Origin: Gemmatimonadota bacterium
GTDB taxonomy: Bacteria > Gemmatimonadota > Gemmatimonadetes > Palauibacterales > KS3-K002
Direction: 5' to 3'
DNA: 64,000 bases
Assembly: GCA_020344215.1 (NCBI GenBank)
Contig: CP070815.1
Location: forward strand, 2,490,358 to 2,554,357
Part shown: piece by piece, positions 2,702 through 42,515 of the stretch
How positions within the stretch are numbered: position 1 is the stretch's first letter
Layout: each line of letters starts with the position of its first letter
Notes under the pieces: generated by a model
Told to the model about the DNA's origin: nothing
The model's input: only the letters and a program-made list of their open reading frames with translations
The model's database searches: none
Translations under genes and position numbers: made by a program

Positions 2702-4510
2702 TCAGCGCACGATCGGCAGCTCCAGGTAGCTGAGATGGTCGGCATCGTGGTACAGAGTCACGTGCGCCGTGCGAGCATCGGCGCTTGATTCCTCTGCGAC
2801 CACGCCACCGCTGTTGTAGTTCTTCTGGACGTAGATGGAGTTCGGCGATTTGAACACCAGCCGCAAGCGACTCCCCTCGGAGATCCGCCGGGAGAAGAAA
2901 AAGAACCCGTTGAACTCGTAGCGCTCCAGCGCGCCGGGCGTCACCAGCTTTGGCTCGCGCAGCGAGTCCCGGTAGCGCGCGCGCATGCGGTCCTGTGTCA
3001 ACGCCACGCTACTGCCGTCTTGCAAGATCTCGGACACAGCTACCTCGAAGTCGGTATCCGGCACATCCAAGGCGAGCCAGACGACCAACGTCAGGTACCC
3101 GGTGACCTCGGTGTCCTCCTCGAAGGGTGCGCTGTGGTAGACCAGACCGTTGCCGAAGAGGTTCAGGGCGAACCGCTGGTCGGTCAGGTAATCTTGGATC
3201 TGTTCCTGCTCGAGCTCGCCCGGGCGTGTATCCAACGGGTCGTAGACGTAGCTGTCGGGCCGAACGTCGGCCCCCGGCTGCTCCCCGGACAGGACGCCAG
3301 ATCGAAACGCATCGTTGGCCTGTCCATCCACCGAGGCCAGATAGAGCCGCCGCCTTTCGCTGGCGATCGACTCGAGCGAATCGACGTACTTCCACTCGTC
3401 AGACCCCACCACGTAGTAGGCGACCCGCTTCTCGAGAAACTCGGGCTTCGGACCGTCCTTCATCGTCCAGTCGTACCATTCCTTGTGCAGCGTGTTCAGG
3501 TCGAGCAGACTCGCCTCGCCGAAGACGAGTCCGCCGACCTCACGCCGCGGCGTGCGCGTGCCGCCGTGATCCCACGGACCGATGATCAGGTAGTGCCGCT
3601 GCCGCGCCGCCAGCGAGGCGAACTGCATGTGCCGCTTGTAGAACTCCATGGCTCCCGGCTGATCACCGTCGTAGTGCCCAGTGATCGTCAGAATCGGCAA
3701 CTCGAGTCGCGAGAACTCCTCGTCGCTGGGGCTCATGGCATCCCAGTAGGCGTCCTGCTGGGGATGAGCGACCCAGGTGTCGAACTTGGTCGTCAGATTG
3801 CCGGCAAGCTCAGGAAGGCCGGTGAATGAACGGTGCTCCCTGTAAAGACGGCTGAACACCTGTATCCAGTGTTCCGATTGCCCGAACAGGTTGAAGTTGG
3901 CGGTCACCCCACTGGTCAGCGTCTGCCACTGGATCGCGTAGGGGTACGGGATGTTTCTCCAAAAGGGGAAGTCGATCCCCGGGAAGGCGGCGGCGGCGGG
4001 CACGATGGTGGCGAGGTGCGGCGGAAACTCCTTTGCCGTCGCCCACTGGTCGTAGCCTGCATACGACCCACCCCACATGGCGACCTTACCGTTGCACCAC
4101 GGCTGCCGGGCGAACCATTCGACGATATCGTGGCCGTCCTCCGCCTCTTGAAGGAACGGATCGAATTCACCTTCCGAGTTTCCGCGACCCCGCACATCGA
4201 CCAGTGCGAACACATAGCCATTGCGGGCGAAGTACCAGGCACGATCGTGATAGGTGTCGCTGGTATAGGGCGTCAACGTGAAGACGACGGGCAGCGGCTC
4301 GGGCATGGGGTCCGGTTTGTAGATGGTCGCGTTGAGCTGCACTCCGTCGCGCACGGGGATCTTGACTCCCCAAGTGACCTCGACCGACTGGGCCTTCGAG
4401 TCGGTCGCCAGCGGCCCGAGCAGCGCTGTCGCCCCAAGAAGGGCGAACAATACGGCGACGGCGACGCAACGGACTGAGGCGCGACGCTGGGTGACCAGAT
4501 GTTGAATCAT
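2702..4510 (-). CDS. S15-family CocE/NonD-type hydrolase (Xaa-Pro dipeptidyl-peptidase-like), secreted
   Basis: The nucleophile motif MWGGSYAGYDQW is present. The N-terminus has a signal peptide. The start was chosen at the internal Met preceded by GAGG; the ORF track extends to 4552. Confidence 0.8.
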   Translation of the reverse strand: MIQHLVTQRRASVRCVAVAVLFALLGATALLGPLATDSKAQSVEVTWGVKIPVRDGVQLNATIYKPDPMPEPLPVVFTLTPYTSDTYHDRAWYFARNGYVFALVDVRGRGNSEGEFDPFLQEAEDGHDIVEWFARQPWCNGKVAMWGGSYAGYDQWATAKEFPPHLATIVPAAAAFPGIDFPFWRNIPYPYAIQWQTLTSGVTANFNLFGQSEHWIQVFSRLYREHRSFTGLPELAGNLTTKFDTWVAHPQQDAYWDAMSPSDEEFSRLELPILTITGHYDGDQPGAMEFYKRHMQFASLAARQRHYLIIGPWDHGGTRTPRREVGGLVFGEASLLDLNTLHKEWYDWTMKDGPKPEFLEKRVAYYVVGSDEWKYVDSLESIASERRRLYLASVDGQANDAFRSGVLSGEQPGADVRPDSYVYDPLDTRPGELEQEQIQDYLTDQRFALNLFGNGLVYHSAPFEEDTEVTGYLTLVVWLALDVPDTDFEVAVSEILQDGSSVALTQDRMRARYRDSLREPKLVTPGALERYEFNGFFFFSRRISEGSRLRLVFKSPNSIYVQKNYNSGGVVAEESSADARTAHVTLYHDADHLSYLELPIVR

Positions 4511-5019
4511 TGCAGTACCTCGGTAGTCCAGAGGACCTTCGGTTCCCCTCACGGCCGCCTCAGCCTCACGTCCCGGCGACAGCCATCATGGGTGCAGGCG
4601 CTCAGCCAGGCAACAGCAAGCCATAGTGGCTAGCGCCAAGGACTCGGCAACTGTGCTGGCACCTGGTGCTCGTTCCACCTAACCATCGACCTGTACAATT
4701 TCGGCGGCGAGTGCGAGGCGGTCAGCCCTTCGGCCCACTTTGTGAACACGCACATTGAGAACGCTCGGATGAAGCTGTGGGGCGCCTGGGCAAAGGTGCG
4801 CTGCGATTCTGTCGAGACTCCGTGGGAGATTCGGGGAACCGGGAAACGAGTCCAGGTCTTTCAACCCCTGTGGTGAATGCAGGGATGCCGTTGCCAGAGC
4901 TTCAGCGACGGCCCAAGCGTACCCGAATGCAGGAGATTTGGCGTTACGCCTCCTTCGCCCCGCCCGCGAACACCCAGCATATCAGCATGGCCCTGGAGCG
5001 TACGGGGCTCTGCCAGCCT

Positions 5020-6579
5020 TCAATCCCACCAGCCGTGCCAGAACCAAGCGCGGCGCCGCGCGTCGTAGAAAACCCAGAGCAGGTCACCCGCGGCGGTGCC
5101 CACCCGGTAGTACTCGCGCCGGAACTCGTCCTCCCACCATTCGCCGGAGAGGCGCTCGGGACCCTTGAGCTCCTGTACCGCGCGCCAGCCGCCGTCGACT
5201 GCCACGGCGCCGGGCCGGCCACTCTCGATCCGCACGTCGATTGGCCGCGGTCGCGGCCAGAGGCGCAGCACGAGGGCCGGGGCTTCCGGGGGAAGCGATG
5301 CGCTCCCGTTACCGTCGAGCACCGCGCGCCGGGCGAGCTCGGTCATGAGATCCACCGGCTCCCAGCGTCCCTGCTTCTCGGGCCGGTGACTGTCGGCGGC
5401 GGCGGGACGCACGACCGAGTCCGGGCCCCAGCGCCCCTGTAGCCGGGTGAGAGCGGTCGCCAGGGCGTCGGGGTCGGGCCGCGGCGGCTCGAACAGGTCC
5501 GCCTGCTCCGCCATCGCCGGGACGACCTCCTCCACTTCGACCCGGATCCCCAGCGCCCGGCCGGGGACCTGCAGGCCGTCGAGCGCGTTCCGGCAGAGGG
5601 AGAGGAGCATCCCTACCTGACGGGTCGGCCGGGCGGGCCGCACGCTCTGCCGGATGGGGCCGTCCTCGGTCGCGATCGTGAGCTCGAGCCCGCGCAGGCA
5701 GAGCCCTTCCACGGCGAGTGCGTCGGACAGGTGATCGAGGCAGGACTTGAGCAGGAAGAGGAGCGGCTCGAGACGTTCCACGGGACCCGGGAACTCGACC
5801 TCCACCGTCCAGTCGCCGGGCGGCGCCCCGCCGAACGGCCCTTCCCTACCATCCTCGAGTCCCCGGGCCCAGCCGAGCGCCTGCACGCCCGCAGCGCCCA
5901 GTCGCGCCTCCACCTCACCCGCCGGAAGCGCTGCCAGCGCGCCGACCGTCTCGAGGCCCAGTGCCTCGAGTAGCTCCATCAAATCTTCGGAGACGGGAAG
6001 GACATGGATGGGGAGCGGCGCCAGGAAGCGGGCGTCGTCGCCCGGCGGCACCCGGTACACGGCGTGGCCGTCCAACCGGGTCGCGGCCCGGGCCGCAGCC
6101 GCGGTACCGGCGATCCCGAGCCGCGCCTCCGGATAGCCCGCCGCCAGCGCCGCCGAGCGCGCCGCCTCGACGAACGCCTGCTCGCCGCCCAGGCGGTCCC
6201 AGCCGCCGGCGTCGAGCCAGAAGGCGCCGAGCCCGGCCCGGCTCACCCGGGGCGACGCGGCGAGCAACGCCGCCGCCAGCTCGGTCTGGACTTCGTCGTA
6301 GAGGGCGGGCGACCACTCCCACTCCCGCAGCCCGGGTAGCTGCGCCCGGGCGTCCGCCGCCCGCATCCCGACCGTGATCTCATGGCGGCGCGCCGCCTCC
6401 GACACCGCCGCCACCACGGCCCGCTTCCCCTCGCCCCGGACCACGATCGCGGGGCCGGGGCGACCGCCGCCCCCCGCGCCCCCCGCGTCCCCCGCGCCGC
6501 TCCCGCCGTCAGCTCGCAGGTGCGCGGCGATCGGGAAGTCCGGAATCCTCAGGCAGGCGATACGGGAGGTCGTGGGCAT
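5020..6579 (-). CDS. imuB: ImuB-like Y-family-polymerase-related protein of the mutagenesis cassette
   Basis: The N-terminus IACLRIPDFPIAAHLRA and the segment VVAAVSEAARRHEITVGM are ImuB/DinB-like. Length is about 520 aa. The gene lies immediately downstream of imuA. Confidence 0.6.
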   Translation of the reverse strand: MPTTSRIACLRIPDFPIAAHLRADGGSGAGDAGGAGGGGRPGPAIVVRGEGKRAVVAAVSEAARRHEITVGMRAADARAQLPGLREWEWSPALYDEVQTELAAALLAASPRVSRAGLGAFWLDAGGWDRLGGEQAFVEAARSAALAAGYPEARLGIAGTAAAARAATRLDGHAVYRVPPGDDARFLAPLPIHVLPVSEDLMELLEALGLETVGALAALPAGEVEARLGAAGVQALGWARGLEDGREGPFGGAPPGDWTVEVEFPGPVERLEPLLFLLKSCLDHLSDALAVEGLCLRGLELTIATEDGPIRQSVRPARPTRQVGMLLSLCRNALDGLQVPGRALGIRVEVEEVVPAMAEQADLFEPPRPDPDALATALTRLQGRWGPDSVVRPAAADSHRPEKQGRWEPVDLMTELARRAVLDGNGSASLPPEAPALVLRLWPRPRPIDVRIESGRPGAVAVDGGWRAVQELKGPERLSGEWWEDEFRREYYRVGTAAGDLLWVFYDARRRAWFWHGWWD

Positions 6580-7260: not shown

Positions 7261-7510
7261 GGCCACGCAAGAGCGGTAGTGACAGAGGGGGCCGATCGCG
7301 TTCGGTTTCGGGATGGCAGGTCCCATTTCCAAACACGGGCGGAGCCCGGCGGCTCGTGCGAACCGCCGATAGGCGCCAGGTTCCCAGAGCCGGCGGCTGC
7401 GCCATATGGCATAGTTCTTCCCCTTCGAGGTAAATTGAGCGACGGCGAATCCCTGCCAGCCGAAGGGTTGTCCGGGGAGCAGTAGGAATTGAACTCTAAC
7501 CCCTAGACAG

Positions 7511-13311: not shown

Positions 13312-14757
13312 CTAGGGTTCGAGGGAGACGGCGCGGAAGCGGACGTCGGGGTCGGGCCGGCCGCGGGAGAAGCGCGGTGCCTTCAAGATCCGGCGATTGT
13401 CGCCCCAGGTCAGGTAGAAGCCCTCTTCGTCGACCGTGCCGTCGTTGTAGTCCCCCATGTAGCAGCTCTTGACCAGCGGGTCGAAGTTCGGATTGAGCGG
13501 CGGCACGTCGAACGACTCGGCGGTGACCCGCTGGTTGACCCAGCTGCGGCCGCCGTCGGTGGAGACGGCGCGGTAGACATCGATCTTCAGATTGGCGGAG
13601 TCGTGCCGGCGGTCGTAGAAGAAGACGCTCACCTGGCCACCCGGCCCCACATCGAGAACCGGCATGAAGTTGTCGTTGCGGGTCTCGTCACCGTTCGCCT
13701 TCACGGCGCGCCCCTTGACGATGTTGACGGGCTCGCTCCAGGAGGCGCCGCCGTCCGTCGAGCGCACCACGAAGACGTCGGAGGCATCACCCCGCCCCTG
13801 GCGACCGGGATCGGCGGCGAAGGCGATGTAGATGTCGCCGCTCCTCCGATCGACATCGATGCTGGGGAACTCGTTCACGCGAATGAAGCCCTTGAGCGCC
13901 GGTCGGTAGCAGGCAGACGTGGCGGACCGGTCGGCGATCCGCGCGAACGTGGCGGCGGCGTACTCCGTCCCCCACGTCTCACCGCCGTCGGTCGAACGCC
14001 GCACCCTGATGCGACCGCCCGTCATACCCGAGCGGTCTTCCCAGGCCACGTGCAGCTCGCCGCGTCTCCCCACCACCGGCATCGCACCCTGAACCTCGCG
14101 GCCGGAGGACAGCCGTTCAGCCCTCGAGTACGTCCTGCCGCCGTCGCTGGACCGGGAGAAGAGGATGCGCGCGGGACCGCGAGGCGGGAACTCGGTCCAG
14201 ACGAGGTAGACGTTCCCGTCGTAACGGCCACCGGTGGCATCGACCGCTATGAGTTCCTTGTCCTGGAAGCCGTTGGGCTCGAGGCCCGGGATCAAGACGG
14301 GCTCGCTGAAGGTCACCGCGCCCTTCGTCTCCGTCGACTTGGCGACGCCAACGTACGAGCGCGCCCGGGCGTCCAGCGCCAGAGTGGCGAAGTAGAAGTT
14401 GCCGTCCCGGTCAACGGCGAGCGCCGCGTCTCCCAGGTTGCGGCCACCCTTCGCCGGCGCCAGCACCCCGGCATCGCTGAACGTCGCCCCACCATCCAGG
14501 GAATAAGCGTAGCCCGTCATGCTGTTGCGACGCGTGAACTCACCGGAATCGTTGAAGCCGACGACCACCACGTCGCCGTGCCGGGCCACCGTGGTCTCGC
14601 TCTGGGTCGTGTTGTTGCCGCGATCAACCGACGGGTCGTTGACCAGTATGTCGTCGGCTGCCCCGAACCGCCCGCCATCCTCACCGCAGGTCACGAGCAA
14701 TCCGATCAAGACGAAAGCGCCGACCCTCCTGATCGCCGTCCTCACCCTTCTCGTCAT
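13312..14757 (-). CDS. BNR/Asp-box repeat lipoprotein (sialidase-like glycosyl-hydrolase fold)
   Basis: Four S/T-x-D-G-G-x-T/S-W/Y Asp-boxes are present: SDGGRTYS, STDGGETWG, STDGGASWS and STDGGRSWV. The lipobox is LLVTCG. The ORF-track N-extension (SYSYSSSSS) comes from reading through a repeat element. Confidence 0.65.
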   Translation of the reverse strand: MTRRVRTAIRRVGAFVLIGLLVTCGEDGGRFGAADDILVNDPSVDRGNNTTQSETTVARHGDVVVVGFNDSGEFTRRNSMTGYAYSLDGGATFSDAGVLAPAKGGRNLGDAALAVDRDGNFYFATLALDARARSYVGVAKSTETKGAVTFSEPVLIPGLEPNGFQDKELIAVDATGGRYDGNVYLVWTEFPPRGPARILFSRSSDGGRTYSRAERLSSGREVQGAMPVVGRRGELHVAWEDRSGMTGGRIRVRRSTDGGETWGTEYAAATFARIADRSATSACYRPALKGFIRVNEFPSIDVDRRSGDIYIAFAADPGRQGRGDASDVFVVRSTDGGASWSEPVNIVKGRAVKANGDETRNDNFMPVLDVGPGGQVSVFFYDRRHDSANLKIDVYRAVSTDGGRSWVNQRVTAESFDVPPLNPNFDPLVKSCYMGDYNDGTVDEEGFYLTWGDNRRILKAPRFSRGRPDPDVRFRAVSLEP

Positions 14758-14815
14758 CACGCTCGACGAGGATGAGTACGAGTACGAGGCTGACGATGAC
14801 GGAGACGGGGATCGA
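14740..14815. repeat. Copy R1, a degenerate member of the hexamer-repeat hairpin family (contains GAGTACGAGTACGAGG)
   Basis: It shares an ACGAGT hexamer tract with the copies at 24.85, 28.4, 49.4 and 57.6 kb. The arms ctcgtcatc and gatgacgga are partly complementary. Confidence 0.4.
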
Positions 14816-14832
14816 GGTTCGGGTCGCATCGA

Positions 14833-15348
14833 TCAACCCCCTAGGCGACGGGTCAGCGACTGGAGAACCGAGTTCTCCAGCGTTCCGTTGGAAGGGAGCG
14901 GCCGGCCGCCCAGCGGGCCCTCACCGCCGCGGACGGTGGCGATGATCGTCGGCGTCACCTCGACGCGAAGACCGCCGTCCGCCGCCGGCTTGAGGGTGAG
15001 CTCGAGCACGTAGCGTCCCCCCTCCTCACCGATGAAGTGCCTGTACTCCTCCGGTACCAGGCGCGCCAGCTCATCGGTGGCAAGTGCAACAGATTGGCTG
15101 TTCAGGAAAGCTTCCTGTTGGGTGGCAAACGCATCGACCAGGCTCGTGCCCAGCTCGGCGGCCACGTCGGCCGACAGCGCGTCGCTCTCGACCAGCACGG
15201 CGGTCAGCGCGTCGACGACCTGGCCCGGGCTCTGCGTGAAGACGGCGAAGTTCTGGAAATCAGTCATCTGGCCATCCGTCTCGTAGGAACAGGCGAGCGC
15301 CAGGGCGGCGAGTGCCGGAACGAGGCGCCTGAGTAGGGTAGCGGACAT
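14833..15348 (-). CDS. Hypothetical lipoprotein
   Basis: The signal and lipobox read LAALALACS. No family was recognised. Confidence 0.45.
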   Translation of the reverse strand: MSATLLRRLVPALAALALACSYETDGQMTDFQNFAVFTQSPGQVVDALTAVLVESDALSADVAAELGTSLVDAFATQQEAFLNSQSVALATDELARLVPEEYRHFIGEEGGRYVLELTLKPAADGGLRVEVTPTIIATVRGGEGPLGGRPLPSNGTLENSVLQSLTRRLGG

Positions 15349-36960: not shown

Positions 36961-38037
36961 TCAAATAGCCTTGACCTCGACGCCCAATCCGTGCGGATAT
37001 ATCACGGCGCGCAGCGAGTCGTCGTGCGTCTTCGCCATCCGCAGCGCTTCGCCGACCCCGTCCAGCCCGAAGCGGTGTGTGATGAGGTCCTCGACCTCGA
37101 ACTCGCCGCTGGCCAGCAGGTCGAGCGCGTCGCGCGTCTCGATCGGTCCAGCCGAGTAGCTGTGGGTAATCGTTACTTCTTTGAAGTACAGGTCGTGCGG
37201 CCGGTAGGCGACCGTTGCCTCCGGGGGTGTCGGAGTGTAGACGAGGACGACACCACCCGGCGCGGCGTGGGCCAGGCCGTGTTCGATCGCATCGACCGCG
37301 CCGGGCATGACGATCACTTTCTCCGCACCCCAGCCGCCGGTCGCCTCCGACATCTTCTCATCGAAGTCGGCGGCGCCCGGGTCGAGGGCGACGTCGGCTC
37401 CTATACCCTCGGCGTACTCGCGGCGAATCGCCACCGGATCGGTAACCACGATGGGCTCGGCCCCGAGGTAGCGAGCCAGGCGAACGTTCAAGAGCCCCAT
37501 CGGCCCGGCACCGATCACCCAGACGCTGACCCCCGGCAGCAGGTCTATCTTGCCGAAGGCACGCAGGCTGCAGGCGAGTGGCTCGATGAACGCCCCTGCC
37601 TCATCCGAGACCTCGTCAGGCAGCTTGAGCACGTCGACGCGCACGATCTCCGCGGGCACCCGCACGAACTCGGCGAAGCCACCGGGATCGAGCGACGTCT
37701 CACGGAAGCGCCGGCACGACGTGTACAGTCCGCGCTGGCAGAGCCGGCAGGTCAGGCAGGGCACGTGATGGTGGAAGAAGACGCGATCCCCGACGTCCAG
37801 GTCCCCCACTTCGGGCGTCACCTCGTGCACGATCCCCACCGGCTCGTGACCGAGGACGACCGGCACCTTGCGGCTTACGTACCAGTCCATGGCGTCGCTT
37901 GAGCAGACACCGCAAACGCTCACCTGCACCCGGATGTCGCCCGGCTCGAGCTGAGGCAGCGGCATCTCCTCCACCCGCACGTCTTCGAGTGAGTAGGCGC
38001 GCGCCGCGTTCATCATCGCTACGCTCTTCTTGTTCAT
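36961..38037 (-). CDS. Zinc-dependent medium-chain alcohol/polyol dehydrogenase
   Basis: The catalytic-zinc ligands (CGVCSSD ... GHEPVG) and the structural-zinc Cys cluster (CLTCRLCQRGLYTSC) are present, along with a GxGxxG motif. Confidence 0.8.
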   Translation of the reverse strand: MNKKSVAMMNAARAYSLEDVRVEEMPLPQLEPGDIRVQVSVCGVCSSDAMDWYVSRKVPVVLGHEPVGIVHEVTPEVGDLDVGDRVFFHHHVPCLTCRLCQRGLYTSCRRFRETSLDPGGFAEFVRVPAEIVRVDVLKLPDEVSDEAGAFIEPLACSLRAFGKIDLLPGVSVWVIGAGPMGLLNVRLARYLGAEPIVVTDPVAIRREYAEGIGADVALDPGAADFDEKMSEATGGWGAEKVIVMPGAVDAIEHGLAHAAPGGVVLVYTPTPPEATVAYRPHDLYFKEVTITHSYSAGPIETRDALDLLASGEFEVEDLITHRFGLDGVGEALRMAKTHDDSLRAVIYPHGLGVEVKAI

Positions 38038-39080
38038 AGTGCGATGGCCACCTTGAGCGCCTCGCGCCGGCGCATCAGTTCGAGCGCCTCAGGGAGTCCC
38101 GCCAGCGGCATCTCGTGCGTAACGAGTGGATCGAGCGTCAGCGTCCCGTTGCAGATGAGGTCCCAAGCGCGCCGCACGCTGTCCGGTGTGTAGTGGAAGC
38201 CGCCCTTCAGGCTGATCTCATCGTAGTGGACCCGTTCGGCATCGAAGCTCACGGCAGCGCCTCTCTCGCAACCGCCGAAGAAGAGCACTTCCCCTCCACG
38301 GCGGGCCAGTGCGACCGCGTCCTCCCACGCTTCTGGACGCCCGACGCACTCCACCACGCTGTCAGCACCCAGTCCGTCGCTCAGCTCCTTTACCACCTCA
38401 AGAGGGTCGGTCCCATTCGCGTCGACGGCCACGTCCGCACCGAGCTGCCGGGCTACCGCCAACCTCCGGCTGTGGCGGCCGATCACGGCTATGCGGCCGG
38501 CGCCACGTACCCGCGCCAGTTGCACGAAGAGCAGCGCCATCGGCCCATCACCGAGGAACACCAGCGTCCGGTCGCCGGCAAGCTTCAACAGACCCGCCCC
38601 ATGCACGACACAGGCGAGCGGCTCTAGAAAGGCGGCGCGGACATCGGAGACGGAGTCGGGGATGCGGAAGGTGTTCCGGTTAACCACCTGACGGGGCAAC
38701 AGTACGTACTCCCCGTAGGCGCCGAGCGCCATATGCTCGAACAGGTGAAGGCAAAGGTTCTCGGCGCCCCGCAGGCAATACGCGCAATCGCCGCACGGCG
38801 CCGTCGGCGTGCCGACGATCCGGTCACCGGCCGCAAACCCGAGGACCCCGTCGCCCAGCGCCTCCACCCTGCCGGCCCATTCGTGACCCAGAGGGCCGGG
38901 AACCTTGAGGCGTGCGTGGCCGCGGTCGGCCGTCTTGAGATCGGTGCCGCAGGTCAGGGCGACGGAGACGCGCGCCAGCACTTCGCCGTCGGCCGGCTCG
39001 GGAGTGTCGACGGACTCCAGCCGTAGCTCTCCGGGACGAACGAGTCGCCAGACGCGCATCGCGGTCGGTCGGTTCGTCAT
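38034..39080 (-). CDS. Zinc-dependent medium-chain alcohol dehydrogenase
   Basis: The zinc ligands (CGTD ... GHEWAG) and a CGDCAYCLRGAENLC cluster are present. The gene overlaps the downstream ADH by 4 nt. The start was set at an internal Met. Confidence 0.75.
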   Translation of the reverse strand: MTNRPTAMRVWRLVRPGELRLESVDTPEPADGEVLARVSVALTCGTDLKTADRGHARLKVPGPLGHEWAGRVEALGDGVLGFAAGDRIVGTPTAPCGDCAYCLRGAENLCLHLFEHMALGAYGEYVLLPRQVVNRNTFRIPDSVSDVRAAFLEPLACVVHGAGLLKLAGDRTLVFLGDGPMALLFVQLARVRGAGRIAVIGRHSRRLAVARQLGADVAVDANGTDPLEVVKELSDGLGADSVVECVGRPEAWEDAVALARRGGEVLFFGGCERGAAVSFDAERVHYDEISLKGGFHYTPDSVRRAWDLICNGTLTLDPLVTHEMPLAGLPEALELMRRREALKVAIAL

Positions 39081-39125
39081 GAGGGTAGAACCTACAGAGT
39101 GACGGCCGCGGCTGGAAGGACCGGG

Positions 39126-39282
39126 GTCGCTGAGGGGGGATGGTCGCCGAGGAGGCCGTCTCGCTCCATGTCGCGTGGGGCGGGGTCTGAGGGAGTCGCC
39201 TCGCTCCATGTCGCGCCACCCGTTGCCGACAACCGAGGTCTGGCCGTGGCGCTCCAAATTACGCTCTACGACTCCCTCAGAC
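39126..39282. repeat. Compound repeat upstream of the ADH operon: a direct repeat of ...CTGAGGG..TCGCC TCGCTCCATGTCGCG (x2) plus a perfect 14-nt inverted repeat (gtctgagggagtcg / cgactccctcagac)
   Basis: Seen directly in the sequence. It creates the spurious MERH...MERG N-terminal extension of the ORF-track entry. Confidence 0.5.
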
Positions 39283-39359
39283 CCCTATTCACTCTCGCAC
39301 GGACTGTTGTATCCCTCACTTAGCGAGACGATCCCCACTGCGACCGCCGCACCCGGGAC

Positions 39360-39908
39360 TCAGCGTGTCGGTTCCACTCGCAGCGCGTTGTTCACGACGT
39401 TGAAGTAAGCGAACAACCCTGCCACCATGCAGATCTCGACTACCTCCCCCTCATCGAAGTGCTTGCGAAGCTCGTCGAACACGGCATCGGGGATCTCATT
39501 GGAGCGCAGCGTGAGCGCTTCGCAGAAGCGGAGTGCCGCCAGTTCCGCCTCCGAGAAACCCGCTCCCTCGAGCTCGCCCGCGATCAACGCATCGATCTGC
39601 ACCTCGCTTCCACCGAACCGCGCTGCCAGCGCGGTATGCGAGTGCAGTCAATAGCGGCAGTTGTTGAGCGCCGAGACACGGACCGAGATGAACTCTTTGA
39701 GCAGAGGCGGAACGGCTCCCCTGCGCATCACCGTCTCGAAGTGTTCGATCATCGTCCGCAGGTGCTCACCGCGCCTGGCAAGGGTGCGGAACATGTTCGG
39801 GATATTGCCACGCTCTTTCAGAAAGGCCTCGAAGATATCTCCGACCTCAGGCGCCTCGCCCGGCTCCAGTGCACGGAGCCGTGGCGCGTTACGGGGGACT
39901 CCACTCAT
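39360..39908 (-). CDS. AhpD-like / carboxymuconolactone-decarboxylase-family protein with an in-frame TGA (39648-39650) at the second Cys of the C-x-x-C-x-x-x-H motif; selenoprotein candidate (C-R-Y-U-L-H-S-H) or a pseudogene
   Basis: The two track ORFs (39648..40025 and 39360..39602) are in the same frame, separated only by the TGA. Both halves match one domain family (N-half: NIPNMFRTLA...VRVSALNNCRY; C-half: ELAALRFCEALT...). GGGAGGTG precedes the ATG at 39908. Confidence 0.55.
39600..39643 (-). ncRNA. SECIS-like two-tier stem-loop beginning 6 nt after the TGA: CUCGC-AU-ACCGCGC-UGGCA-GCGCGGU-UCGGUGGAA-GCGAG
   Basis: The inner stem is a perfect 7 bp starting 13 nt after UGA. The apical loop UGGCA carries G at +21 and +22. 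An outer 5-bp stem encloses it. Confidence 0.4.
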
Positions 39909-40039
39909 CTTCACCTCCCGCTGCGCGCGGATCAGCTTCCACCGACGAACGCTGTCGAGCGGTTTGAAAGAAAGCGACGACGGCGCGGACGGCAAGCGGG
40001 GCTCGCGGGAGCGGCCAGCGGGCATATCTTCATAGCGCC

Positions 40040-40984
40040 ATGGCTCACATACCGGACGGGTTCCTCACGGCGTCTGTCTCCGCCGGCACGTTCGCTGCCG
40101 CGGGGGCGCTCACCGCCCTCGCTGCGCGTCAAGCGCGGGCGCGCCTGGACGACCGAGCGGCTCCAACCCTGGGGCTCGCCACCGCGGCAGTCTTCGCCGC
40201 CCAGGCGGTGAACTTCCCGGTCGCCGCCGGGACCAGCGGGCATCTCTTGGGTGGCACGCTGGTGGCCGTCGCCTTTGGGCCCTGGGCCGGGTTCTTGGTG
40301 ATGACGGCGGTCGTGATCGCCCAAGCGCTCATCTTCGCCGACGGCGGCCTGACGGCGCTGGGGGCAAACGTCCTCAACATCGCCGGTGCCGGGGCCCTGG
40401 CTGGGTACGCCGTCTACCGCGTCCTGACGGGCCTCGCCGGGGACGGGCCGCGTCGACGCGGGCTGGCAGCGGCGATCGCCGCTTACCTGGCGACGGTGCT
40501 CACCGGAATCGCGGCGGGAGTCGAGCTGGGGCTGAGCGGAATCGCACCGGCCCGTCTCTCGGTGGGCGCGATGGCGAGCGTGCACGCGGTCATCGGGCTC
40601 GCGGAGGCTTCGATCACCGGGTTCGCGGTGTGGGCGCTGGCGCGGAAGCGACCCGAGCTGCTCTTCCGGCCGCGCGGTGCGGCGCCAGTCGGTCCGCCGC
40701 GGGCCTTGGTGCTGGCGGGGCTCGGTGTGGTAGCGATCCTCGCGGGACTTCTCTCGATCGTCGCCTCGACGGCCCCCGACAGCCTGGAGCGGATAGCGAT
40801 CGACCTGGGGTTTGCCGACGCGGCCACGTCCTGGGAAGGCGCGCCGCTCACCGACTACCAGGCCTGGATCCCGGGCGCGGTGGGGACCGCGGTGGCCGTA
40901 CTGCTGGGCGTGGCACTCCTCTTCGCCGGCACGGCGGCCACCGTCAGAGCGGCGGCTCGCGTCCGCCACACCCGGGAGAGCTGA
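40040..40984 (+). CDS. cbiM: ECF transporter S-component CbiM/NikM with a C-terminal PDGLE (CbiN-like) domain
   Basis: The N-terminus MAHIPDGFL and the multi-TM core match CbiM. The C-terminal segment contains APDSLE and an extra TM helix. Confidence 0.8.
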   Translation: MAHIPDGFLTASVSAGTFAAAGALTALAARQARARLDDRAAPTLGLATAAVFAAQAVNFPVAAGTSGHLLGGTLVAVAFGPWAGFLVMTAVVIAQALIFADGGLTALGANVLNIAGAGALAGYAVYRVLTGLAGDGPRRRGLAAAIAAYLATVLTGIAAGVELGLSGIAPARLSVGAMASVHAVIGLAEASITGFAVWALARKRPELLFRPRGAAPVGPPRALVLAGLGVVAILAGLLSIVASTAPDSLERIAIDLGFADAATSWEGAPLTDYQAWIPGAVGTAVAVLLGVALLFAGTAATVRAAARVRHTRES

Positions 40985-41754
40985 TGGGGTTCGCCCACCT
41001 CGACCGTCACGCCGCCCGTCCCTCGTGGCTCACCGCGCGCACCAGCCCGAGCCAGCGACTCTGGATCGCCATCGCCGCCGCGTTCGCTGCGGGACTCATG
41101 CCGCCGGGCGCCTGGCACGCGCTCGGGGCCCTCGCCGCCGTCGTCGCGCTCGGGGTCTTGGCCGCCCGATTGCCGCTGAGCACCCTGGCGCGGCGCGTAG
41201 GTCAGGCGCTCCCCTTCTTCCTGCTGCCGGCCCTGGCGCTGCCCGTGAGCGTACCCGGCCCGGTCGCGCTGGAGATCGGTCCCCTGACCCTGAGTGGGCC
41301 GGGGCTCTCGCGGGCCGCTGAGATCGTGCTACGGGCTACGCTGGCGGTCTCAGCGGTCACCATCGTCGTATCGGTGACCCGAGCCACCGACCTGCTGCGC
41401 GCCCTGGACAGCCTACCGATACCGCGCCTGGTGAAAAGCTCGCTGGCGCTCGGCTACCGCTACGTCTACCTGCTGAATGACGAGATGGAGCGAACCGCCA
41501 GGGCTATAAGGAGCCGCATGGGCCGGGCTTCCCGACTCCGCCTCTGGCGCGCCCGGGCCGCCACGCTAGCCCACCTGCTGCTGCGAGCGCACGACCGTGG
41601 CACTCGGATCCATGCCGCCATGCTGAGCCGCGGATACAGCGACCGGCTACCGACGCTCCAGCCGGCGGCCACGGTGAGCCGCGCCTGGAGCCTGACGATC
41701 GTCGGCCTGCTCGCCCTCGTCTGGCTGGGCGGACTGCTCGAGGTGATGGAATGA
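40984..41754 (+). CDS. cbiQ: ECF transporter T-component
   Basis: The start overlaps the cbiM stop (ATGA). It is a multi-TM protein of about 256 aa sitting between cbiM and cbiO. Confidence 0.7.
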   Translation: MGFAHLDRHAARPSWLTARTSPSQRLWIAIAAAFAAGLMPPGAWHALGALAAVVALGVLAARLPLSTLARRVGQALPFFLLPALALPVSVPGPVALEIGPLTLSGPGLSRAAEIVLRATLAVSAVTIVVSVTRATDLLRALDSLPIPRLVKSSLALGYRYVYLLNDEMERTARAIRSRMGRASRLRLWRARAATLAHLLLRAHDRGTRIHAAMLSRGYSDRLPTLQPAATVSRAWSLTIVGLLALVWLGGLLEVME

Positions 41755-42515
41755 GCTGTCTGGGCGGCAACGAGGCCTGGAGCGTCGAGATAGACGGGCT
41801 GGGCTACAGCTACCCGGGAGCCCGCAGCCCGGCACTCTCCGACATCTCCTTTGCCATCGAGCCCGGTGAGCACGTGGCCATCGTAGGCCCGAACGGCGCC
41901 GGCAAGAGTACGCTCCTCCTGCACCTCAACGGAATCCTCGAACCGAATTCCGGCTCGCTTTCCATCGGCGGCCTCCCTGTCATCCCGGAGAACCTGCCCG
42001 ACATCCGCACGCGAGTCGGACTCGTCTTTCAGGACCCCGACGACCAGCTGTTCATGCCGACCCTGCTGGAGGACGCGGCGTTCGGGCCCCTCTGTCACGG
42101 CGCGTCGCATGACGAGGCCGAAGACCGGGCGCGCCGCGCCCTGGAAAGCGTGGGGCTGGGGCAAGTGGACGCGGATCGGGCCGCCCACCATTTGAGCGGC
42201 GGCGAGAAGCGGCGGGCGGCATTGGCCACGGTGCTGAGCCTGCAGCCCGGGGTCCTGGCGCTGGACGAGCCGACGGCGAGCCTCGACGGCCGCGGCCGAC
42301 GTCAGATCGCCGAGATCCTTCGCGCCCGACCGCAGACCGTGATCGTCGTGACCCACGACGTGGAGTTTGCCGCAGCGGTCTCTCAGAGGACGGTCTTGCT
42401 GGACGGCGGACGACTGATCGCCGATCGCCCGTCAGACGAGTTGTTGGACGACATCGAGCTCTTGCTGAACCACGGGCTGGAGCTCTCCCGCTGGCTGCGC
42501 GAAGAGGCACGCTGA
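41751..42515 (+). CDS. cbiO: ECF transporter ATPase
   Basis: Walker A GPNGAGKST, the ABC signature LSGGEKRR and Walker B LALDEPT are all present. Confidence 0.9.
   Translation: MSCLGGNEAWSVEIDGLGYSYPGARSPALSDISFAIEPGEHVAIVGPNGAGKSTLLLHLNGILEPNSGSLSIGGLPVIPENLPDIRTRVGLVFQDPDDQLFMPTLLEDAAFGPLCHGASHDEAEDRARRALESVGLGQVDADRAAHHLSGGEKRRAALATVLSLQPGVLALDEPTASLDGRGRRQIAEILRARPQTVIVVTHDVEFAAAVSQRTVLLDGGRLIADRPSDELLDDIELLLNHGLELSRWLREEAR

Follow-up and report, generated by a model that had tools for sequence, protein, structure and literature searches.

An AhpD-like gene with an in-frame UGA and a covarying downstream hairpin very probably encodes a selenoprotein in a Gemmatimonadota bacterium

The stretch of DNA analysed here, referred to as the window, comprises 64,000 nucleotides of a Gemmatimonadota bacterium (assembly GCA_020344215.1, contig CP070815.1, positions 2,490,358 to 2,554,357 of the forward strand), and a first-pass annotation made from its letters alone had proposed that an AhpD-like gene with an in-frame TGA is a selenoprotein candidate. 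Our data support this interpretation, and we suggest that the minus-strand region 39908..39360 very probably encodes a 182-residue AhpD-like thiol/selenol oxidoreductase of the COG2128/TIGR01926 family, in which the UGA at codon 87 is decoded as selenocysteine (Sec). The support is fourfold: (i) the UGA is conserved among homologues, (ii) Sec and Cys forms are paired at this position, (iii) a covarying hairpin resembling a bacterial Sec insertion sequence (SECIS) follows the UGA, and (iv) the part of the gene downstream of the UGA is under selection.

Results

A single reading frame with one internal UGA

The minus-strand region 39908..39360 is a single frame of 182 codons, and its sole internal stop is the TGA at 39648-39650, around which the translation reads ...SALNNCRY*LHSHTALAARFGG.... 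The entries 39648..40025 and 39360..39602 of the list of open reading frames (ORFs) lie in this same frame, and the 15 codons between them, LHSHTALAARFGGSE, are without a further stop. The translation thus agrees with the first-pass description of two same-frame ORFs parted only by this TGA, with a read-through product of about 182 residues; the strong ribosome-binding site claimed for the gene is likewise there, GGGAGGTG being present at 39919-39912. In the alignment, the start at ATG 39908 matches the N-termini of the homologues, the syntenic orthologue L006 has GGAGG-N4-ATG at the equivalent place, and the longer ORF from 40025 is an unconserved extension that reaches into the cbiM start region. 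About 24 of the 52 predicted genes of the window end in TGA, the AhpD-like gene included (stop 39362-39360); therefore, the standard code is in use and a variant genetic code is excluded.

Profile searches, made with Cys in place of the internal stop, place the protein in the AhpD/carboxymuconolactone decarboxylase (CMD) family, to which the first-pass annotation had assigned both halves: PF02627 (Pfam CMD) is matched with E=1.2e-16 and 60.9 bits (cutoff 23), the NCBIfam model TIGR01926 "peroxidase-related enzyme" with 86.5 bits (cutoff 81.8) and TIGR00778 (ahpD_dom, the AhpD core domain) with 57.2 bits (cutoff 27.8), whereas TIGR00777, which describes the canonical Mycobacterium tuberculosis-type AhpD, reaches 16.2 bits and stays below its cutoff of 191.95. 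The protein is therefore an AhpD-like protein of the COG2128/YciW group and not a canonical AhpD. Two further models, NF041238 for AhpD-related (seleno)proteins (43.1 bits, cutoff 175) and NF053654 for YciW-related (seleno)proteins (63.7 bits, cutoff 310), also stay below their cutoffs; they represent related selenoprotein-containing families that are distinct from the family of the window gene. A protein database search gave 37 homologues, mostly of about 180 residues with Cys in the U87 column, and the full-length ones among them have 174-204 residues and 44-69% identity. The closest solved structure is 6k40, a Deinococcus AhpD-like protein (E=3.5e-16, residues 31-180), and a second structure, 2oyo, is matched with E=8e-15 over about 150 residues; the motif LNxCxYCxxSH is common to both.

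The UGA lies exactly where it had been placed from the sequence, on the second Cys of the C-x-x-C-x-x-x-H signature, which in this protein reads C84-R-Y-U87-L-H-S-H91. By alignment only, Glu72, Cys84, Tyr86, U87 and His91 correspond with identical spacing to the AhpD proton relay, which consists of Glu36, Cys48, Tyr50, Cys51 and His55 in PA0269 and of Glu118, Cys130, His132, Cys133 and His137 in M. tuberculosis AhpD (PMC3141380). The distance between Glu72 and Cys84 equals that between Glu36 and Cys48 in PA0269 (PMC3141380), the UGA occupies the position of Cys133 of M. tuberculosis AhpD, and His91 is aligned with His55 of PA0269 and with His137 of M. tuberculosis AhpD (PMC3141380). Termination at the UGA would leave His91 untranslated.

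Conservation of the UGA and selection downstream of it

A genome scan with one genome per species gave over 583 homologous loci; the analysis covers the best 80 of these, and all codon counts given here refer to the codon aligned with 39648-39650 in these 80 loci. This codon is TGA in 63 loci, TGC or TGT, i.e. Cys, in 17, and a genuine Trp codon in none. The TGA forms are found in Gemmatimonadota, in Acidobacteriota (Terriglobia) and in one cultured Clostridia isolate (Wukongibacter baidiensis, L066); the metagenome contig L001, which is 69% identical and stands outside the 63 of 80, also has TGA at the same codon. The two closest loci, L006 (a complete chromosome of a Gemmatimonadota metagenome-assembled genome (MAG), CP070823.1) and L007, share synteny with the window over 6-17 kb, where the nucleotide identity is 75-80%, and both keep the TGA and an identical hairpin despite a synonymous divergence (dS) of 0.6-1.3 elsewhere in the gene. 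That TGA is kept at one codon through such divergence argues that it is translated and is not a nonsense mutation.

The ratio of non-synonymous to synonymous divergence (dN/dS) relative to L001, L006 and L007 is 0.18-0.30 downstream of the UGA and 0.14-0.21 upstream of it. By parsimony, 13 synonymous and 11 non-synonymous changes, the latter mostly conservative, occurred in the downstream half on the branch leading to the window, giving an omega of about 0.29 if the ratio of synonymous to non-synonymous sites, about 1:3, is taken as the neutral expectation. The downstream half is under purifying selection. The first-pass annotation had asked whether orthologues carry Cys or U at this codon, and had named orthologues ending at this stop or a decaying downstream half as signs of a pseudogene: both TGA (63) and TGC/TGT (17) occur, the orthologues read through into a conserved C-terminal half, and the dN/dS values give no sign of decay.

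Two JGI protein entries, P0001 and P0014, show W at the position of codon 87. The DNA under P0001 (L001:518-520) is TGA and not TGG, i.e. the W in P0001 is a TGA read through as Trp by the annotation pipeline, and sequence searches may mistake such selenoproteins for Trp variants.

A hairpin specific to the TGA forms

The hairpin at 39635-39617 is separated from the UGA by 12 nt, with the conserved stem beginning 13 nt after it. The folding energy is -13.3 kcal/mol (z=-2.6) for the hairpin and -31.5 kcal/mol (z=-3.1) for its 66-nt context. The structure is the one recognised at first pass as ACCGCGC-UGGCA-GCGCGGU, thirteen nt after the UGA and with a G-containing apical loop. When 62 TGA forms are aligned over the 48 nt that begin with the UGA, no gaps are needed, and columns 17-23 and 27-33, which form the 7-bp stem, are 98.8% paired; six of the seven pairs have changed on both sides in a compensatory manner, giving stem variants such as CCGCC/GGCGG, CCGCGC/GCGCGG, GCAGC/GCUGC, CCGUC/GACGG and CUGCC/GGCAG. 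None of 500 shuffles did as well in pairing or in covariation, and the pairing disappears when the 3' partners are shifted. The apical GGC, closed by a U-A pair, is nearly invariant among the TGA forms, and the family consensus is UGA-N13-CCGCCUU-GGC-AAGGCGG. In the 17 Cys forms the stem columns pair no better than background (35%). The SECIS-like element is thus conserved, covarying and specific to TGA forms. This does not extend to the outer CUCGC/GCGAG stem that had been proposed as part of it, which is present in the window but is 65% paired across the 62 members and is not conserved.

Changes in the stem alter the encoded peptide (TALAAR, TALARR, TQLAAA and others) and, therefore, the protein sequence yields to the RNA structure and not the reverse. 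In the comparison with L006, synonymous divergence (pS) is 0.10 in the hairpin codons and 0.48-0.62 in the rest of the gene. A covariance model, R1, was built from 57 TGA forms without the window, L001, L006 and L007; TGA forms score 55-66 bits with it, held-out TGA forms 48-66 bits and Cys forms, with the exception of L016, 12-21 bits. Its result for the window is listed in Table 1.

Sec decoding in related lineages

In 14 Gemmatimonadota loci (L014, L017, L019, L034, L036, L037, L043, L046, L049, L058, L067, L068, L075 and L076) the AhpD-like gene is preceded, 2-5 kb upstream and on the same strand, by another gene that contains an in-frame TGA. This other gene encodes a BCP-type peroxiredoxin (Prx; PF00578, E=6e-30) with the motif FYPGxxTPG-U-N, in which the TGA falls on the peroxidatic Cys of PxxxTxxC (for example L034:7306-7749, TGA at 7447), and a gene for a TrxB-like flavoprotein (thioredoxin-reductase-like, PF07992) lies between the Prx gene and the AhpD-like gene. 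Two unrelated families with TGA at a catalytic Cys are found in the same genomes and, therefore, Sec decoding exists in Gemmatimonadota. By analogy with AhpC/AhpD, the clustering points to a possible redox relay of Prx, flavoprotein reductase and AhpD-like protein. The Prx and TrxB-like genes are not present in the window.

Immediately after the Prx TGA, the sequence AACCGCCAACUCUCCGCCGUGCGCGA shows conservation at the nucleotide level, which suggests that it may be a second SECIS.

A Terriglobia MAG with the TGA form (L030) carries selB at 3673-5595 on the minus strand, 4.4 kb from its AhpD-like gene (TIGR00475, 359 bits, cutoff 242). The best 120 matches in a database search with this SelB were all from Terriglobia, a result that is uninformative for Gemmatimonadota.

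Gene loss and Sec-to-Cys intermediates

The loci L002-L005 represent a syntenic relative with 79% nucleotide identity and the same cbiMQO and alcohol dehydrogenase neighbours, in which the N-terminal two-thirds of the gene have been deleted. The C-terminal third survives (L002:8843-9283, and also in L003, L004 and L005, corresponding to window 39366-39557). In place of the N-terminal part, with its CxxU motif and hairpin, there is a short stretch of repetitive sequence, and the gene no longer has its stop codon. The L002 remnant is found in the database as a 146-aa 'alkylhydroperoxidase family enzyme' (P0036). This remnant looks like the loss of a selenoprotein gene in progress.

The exceptional Cys form, L016 (Acidobacteriaceae; L016:10247-10294), has TGC at the Sec position together with a perfect family hairpin scoring 63.9 bits, and appears to be a very recent Sec-to-Cys conversion with a 'fossil' SECIS. 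In L046 the Prx gene (L046:140) keeps its TGA and the AhpD-like gene (L046:5187) has TGC and is without the hairpin; therefore, Sec-to-Cys replacement is possible in a genome that apparently still decodes Sec. In W. baidiensis DY30321 (NZ_CP138202.1; L066:10247-10294) the TGA form is followed by a different sequence without a match to the family SECIS model, which suggests that this locus carries a second SECIS type for the AhpD-like family.

Genomic context and features of the window

The AhpD-like gene is divergent from a cbiMQO transporter of the energy-coupling factor (ECF) type, as the first-pass annotation had it, the neighbours being CbiM, CbiQ and an ABC ATPase by Pfam. The arrangement with cbiM-cbiQ-ABC on one side and the Zn-dehydrogenases on the other is common to L006 and L007, and clustering of the neighbouring genes across the loci gave no universal partner, only lineage-specific synteny. 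The coordinates of the gene, its elements and its neighbours are collected in Table 1.

Table 1. Position and basis of the features discussed in the text.
Feature	Position in window	Strand	Basis and remarks
AhpD-like selenoprotein gene (very probable; peroxidase-related, COG2128/TIGR01926)	39360..39908	-	182 codons including U87; ATG 39908-39906; true stop TGA 39362-39360
In-frame UGA, codon 87, very probably read as Sec, at the second Cys of CxxC	39648..39650	-	Aligned with Cys in 17 and TGA in 63 genomic homologues
SECIS-like core hairpin A-CCGCGCU-GGC-AGCGCGG-U	39617..39635	-	Conserved 7-bp stem, 39634-39628 with 39624-39618; apical GGC 39627-39625
Span matched by the SECIS covariance model, UGA plus 45 nt	39603..39650	-	R1: sole match in the 64-kb window, 57.3 bits, E ~2e-15; next best 5.1 bits
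Glu72 codon, proton-relay Glu, 12 residues before Cys84	39693..39695	-	K71 and E72 invariant in alignment A3
Cys84 codon, first Cys of C-x-x-U, presumed resolving thiol	39657..39659	-	Alignment; equals Cys48 of PA0269 and Cys130 of M. tuberculosis AhpD (PMC3141380)
His91 codon, proton-relay His of C-x-x-U-x-x-x-H, between UGA and hairpin	39636..39638	-	Invariant in alignment A3
Shine-Dalgarno-like GGGAGGTG	39912..39919	-	GGAGG core 5 nt 5' of ATG 39908
Divergent cbiM-cbiQ-ABC ATPase (ECF-type Co/Ni uptake)	40040..42515	+	PF01891, PF02361, PF00005; syntenic in L002, L003 and L006
Two Zn-dependent alcohol-dehydrogenase-family genes, ~300 nt after the AhpD-like stop	36961..39059	-	PF08240, PF00107; syntenic in L002, L006 and L007

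About 300 nt (39060-39359) that separate the AhpD-like stop from the probable start of the Zn-dehydrogenase gene (its 341-aa form, as in L002) are apparently non-coding and contain no terminator or promoter consensus.

A scan of the window for other genes with an in-frame TGA left candidates that are antisense to real genes or true gene ends. The region 13312-15348 on the minus strand, with a TGA at 14833-14835, was rejected as a selenoprotein: a lipoprotein-like ORF of 171 aa and an ORF of 505 aa happen to be in the same frame there, the flanks of the TGA are without a redox motif and the second ORF has its own Met right after the stop, i.e. these are two adjacent genes.

Discussion

Combining the conservation of the UGA and of the hairpin with the family assignment, and by analogy with characterised Sec-decoding systems, we suggest that a ribosome arriving at the UGA would meet a hairpin 13 nt downstream, with a 7-bp stem and a G-rich apical loop, that would be bound by SelB-GTP-Sec-tRNA(Sec), and that SelB would deliver Sec in place of termination. 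The redox centre of the product would be C84-x-x-U87, with the proton-relay residues Glu72, Tyr86 and His91 around it. The exposed Cys of M. tuberculosis AhpD that cross-links to AhpC is the second one, Cys133 (PMC6626918), and because of this model we assign U87, which takes the place of Cys133, as the presumed nucleophile: it may attack an oxidised peroxiredoxin, after which the mixed selenenylsulfide would be resolved by Cys84. The protein would probably act in the defence against oxidative stress, by re-reducing a peroxiredoxin or another oxidised thiol protein or as a weak direct peroxidase.

AhpD-like CxxU proteins of COG2128/TIGR01926 have been known since 2005 and are among the commonest bacterial selenoprotein families. 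They were first reported from the Sargasso Sea as a new selenoprotein family with 27 sequences (COG2128; PMC1088965), "AhpD-like 1" (COG2128, CxxU) ranked fourth in the Global Ocean Sampling (GOS) selenoproteome with 299 Sec forms and 902 Cys forms (PMC2398784), and reviews from 2022 and 2026 list an "AhpD-like protein, COG2128 / TIGR01926, CxxU" (PMC9312934, PMC13188914). The features by which such genes have been recognised in this literature are a Sec/Cys pair, conservation of the TGA in two or more sequences (PMC1088965) and a SECIS-like bacterial hairpin whose small apical loop contains G; the window gene has all three, its TGA being conserved in at least two independent sequences. As in the reported family, the window gene scores above the TIGR01926 cutoff, has its predicted Sec at the second Cys with a hairpin immediately downstream, and belongs to a set of homologues in which Sec and Cys forms coexist. 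The reported members are from marine plankton, whereas the host of the window gene is a soil/sediment-type member of the Gemmatimonadota, and nothing essential differs. In the searchable literature, we found no mention of selenoproteins in Gemmatimonadota, which is weak evidence of absence.

The window protein and M. tuberculosis AhpD both have the CMD/AhpD core and the CxxC(U)xxxH motif with the upstream Glu of the proton relay, with Cys133 aligned with U87 (PMC3141380, PMC6626918). Unlike M. tuberculosis AhpD, however, the window protein is of the other topology class (YciW-like, 180-200 aa, as DR_1765/6k40 and 2oyo), has Tyr and not His between the redox residues, as does PA0269, and has no adjacent ahpC in the window. 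Deinococcus DR_1765 (PDB 6k40) and 2oyo, both of COG2128 (PMC6300522), share the LNxCxYCxxSH motif with the window protein but have Cys at the second position and modest identity to it. On the RNA side, the window stem-loop resembles E. coli SECIS/SelB systems of the fdhF type in being part of the coding region, in following the UGA directly, its upper stem being some 11-13 nt away, and in having a small, G-containing apical loop (general features as in PMC1088965). It differs in that its sequence is unrelated, that no Rfam model covers it, and that its loop, GGC with a closing U-A pair or UGGCA when this pair opens, lacks a bulged U. The locus also differs from those of the other Gemmatimonadota, in which the Prx-TrxB-AhpD-like cluster is found, whereas cbiMQO and two Zn-dependent alcohol dehydrogenase genes surround the window gene.

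A number of observations weigh against the selenoprotein interpretation or parts of it. None of selA, selB, selD and the gene for tRNA-Sec was found within the 64-kb window; with ARAGORN, the window yielded no tRNA and 82 loci yielded no tRNA-Sec, and tblastn with E. coli SelA, SelB and SelD probes, used as leads only, gave no match in the window, the single match of these probes among the loci being the selB gene in L030 that was confirmed with NCBIfam. Consensus scans of 38950-40150 found neither a promoter nor a terminator. Searched against Rfam, neither the whole window at the gathering threshold nor 39500-39750 at E-values up to 10 gave a SECIS or other relevant family; this counts little against function, since Rfam covers the diverse SECIS elements of bacteria poorly. 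Because the N-terminal two-thirds of the gene have been deleted in L002-L005, neighbouring lineages can do without the AhpD-like gene and are losing it. With respect to the assignment of U87 as the nucleophile, the first Cys matters more than the second in Burkholderia AhpD (PMC6626918).

The absence of Sec machinery genes from the window and the destruction of the gene by deletion in so close a relative would both fit a recent pseudogene, i.e. a genome that no longer has the Sec machinery, or one that gained the gene but not the machinery, so that the UGA ends translation after 86 residues and the rest is decaying. For the window genome we consider this unlikely: the 95 codons downstream of the UGA are intact, the 13 synonymous changes stand against 11 mostly conservative non-synonymous ones where neutrality predicts about 1:3, the hairpin is perfectly paired and with 57.3 bits scores as high as those of the relatives, and the start codon, the ribosome-binding site and all five catalytic residues are intact. 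At the level of the family a pseudogene is effectively excluded, and the only live rival is a recent loss of Sec decoding in the window genome. An ancient point-mutation pseudogene, or a sequencing error, that turned TGC into TGA in a Cys-type AhpD-like gene is hardly credible; although the two codons are one base apart and Cys forms do exist (17 of 80), the same TGA is present in 63 independent assemblies and in L001, two syntenic orthologues included, and a hairpin that is specific to TGA forms and missing from the true Cys forms is present in the window.

Alternatively, the locus could be a split gene, giving a product of 86 aa and another of 80 aa from GTG 39602, or the UGA could be read as Trp or another standard amino acid by way of a variant code or near-cognate read-through. 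That gene callers yield two ORFs and that the JGI entries P0001 and P0014 show W at codon 87 would agree with such readings, which are nevertheless very improbable. A split would leave untranslated the 15 codons between the TGA and GTG 39602, although these are conserved and encode the invariant catalytic His91, and the Cys homologues are single polypeptides. As for decoding by a standard amino acid, the DNA under P0001 is TGA and not TGG, TGA serves as the stop of about 24 of the 52 window genes as in the standard code, and the homologues have Cys at this site and never a genuine Trp codon.

We therefore favor decoding of codon 87 as Sec. Gene callers split the gene into two ORFs, and the window is better annotated with one selenoprotein of 182 aa. 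The selenoprotein interpretation implies that this Gemmatimonadota organism decodes UGA as Sec, and the loci show two selenoprotein families in Gemmatimonadota, the AhpD-like family and the BCP-type Prx. Otherwise, the gene is an ordinary member of an abundant bacterial selenoprotein family and opens no new question; the family SECIS consensus, which works as a covariance model, is a useful by-product.

A more speculative scenario, which we regard as doubtful, is that in the window, L006 and L007 the AhpD-like selenoprotein became detached from the Prx(Sec)-TrxB-AhpD-like(Sec) cluster and fixed between cbiMQO and the Zn-dehydrogenases, where it might serve a partner or substrate other than a peroxiredoxin, for example in aldehyde/alcohol metabolism or metal stress. 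In this same scenario the family-specific SECIS, nearly invariant across two phyla and absent from Rfam, would define a distinct, searchable class.

L016, L046 and L002-L005 are natural intermediates for studying the gain and loss of selenoproteins, and L066, as a cultured isolate, is a possible experimental handle.

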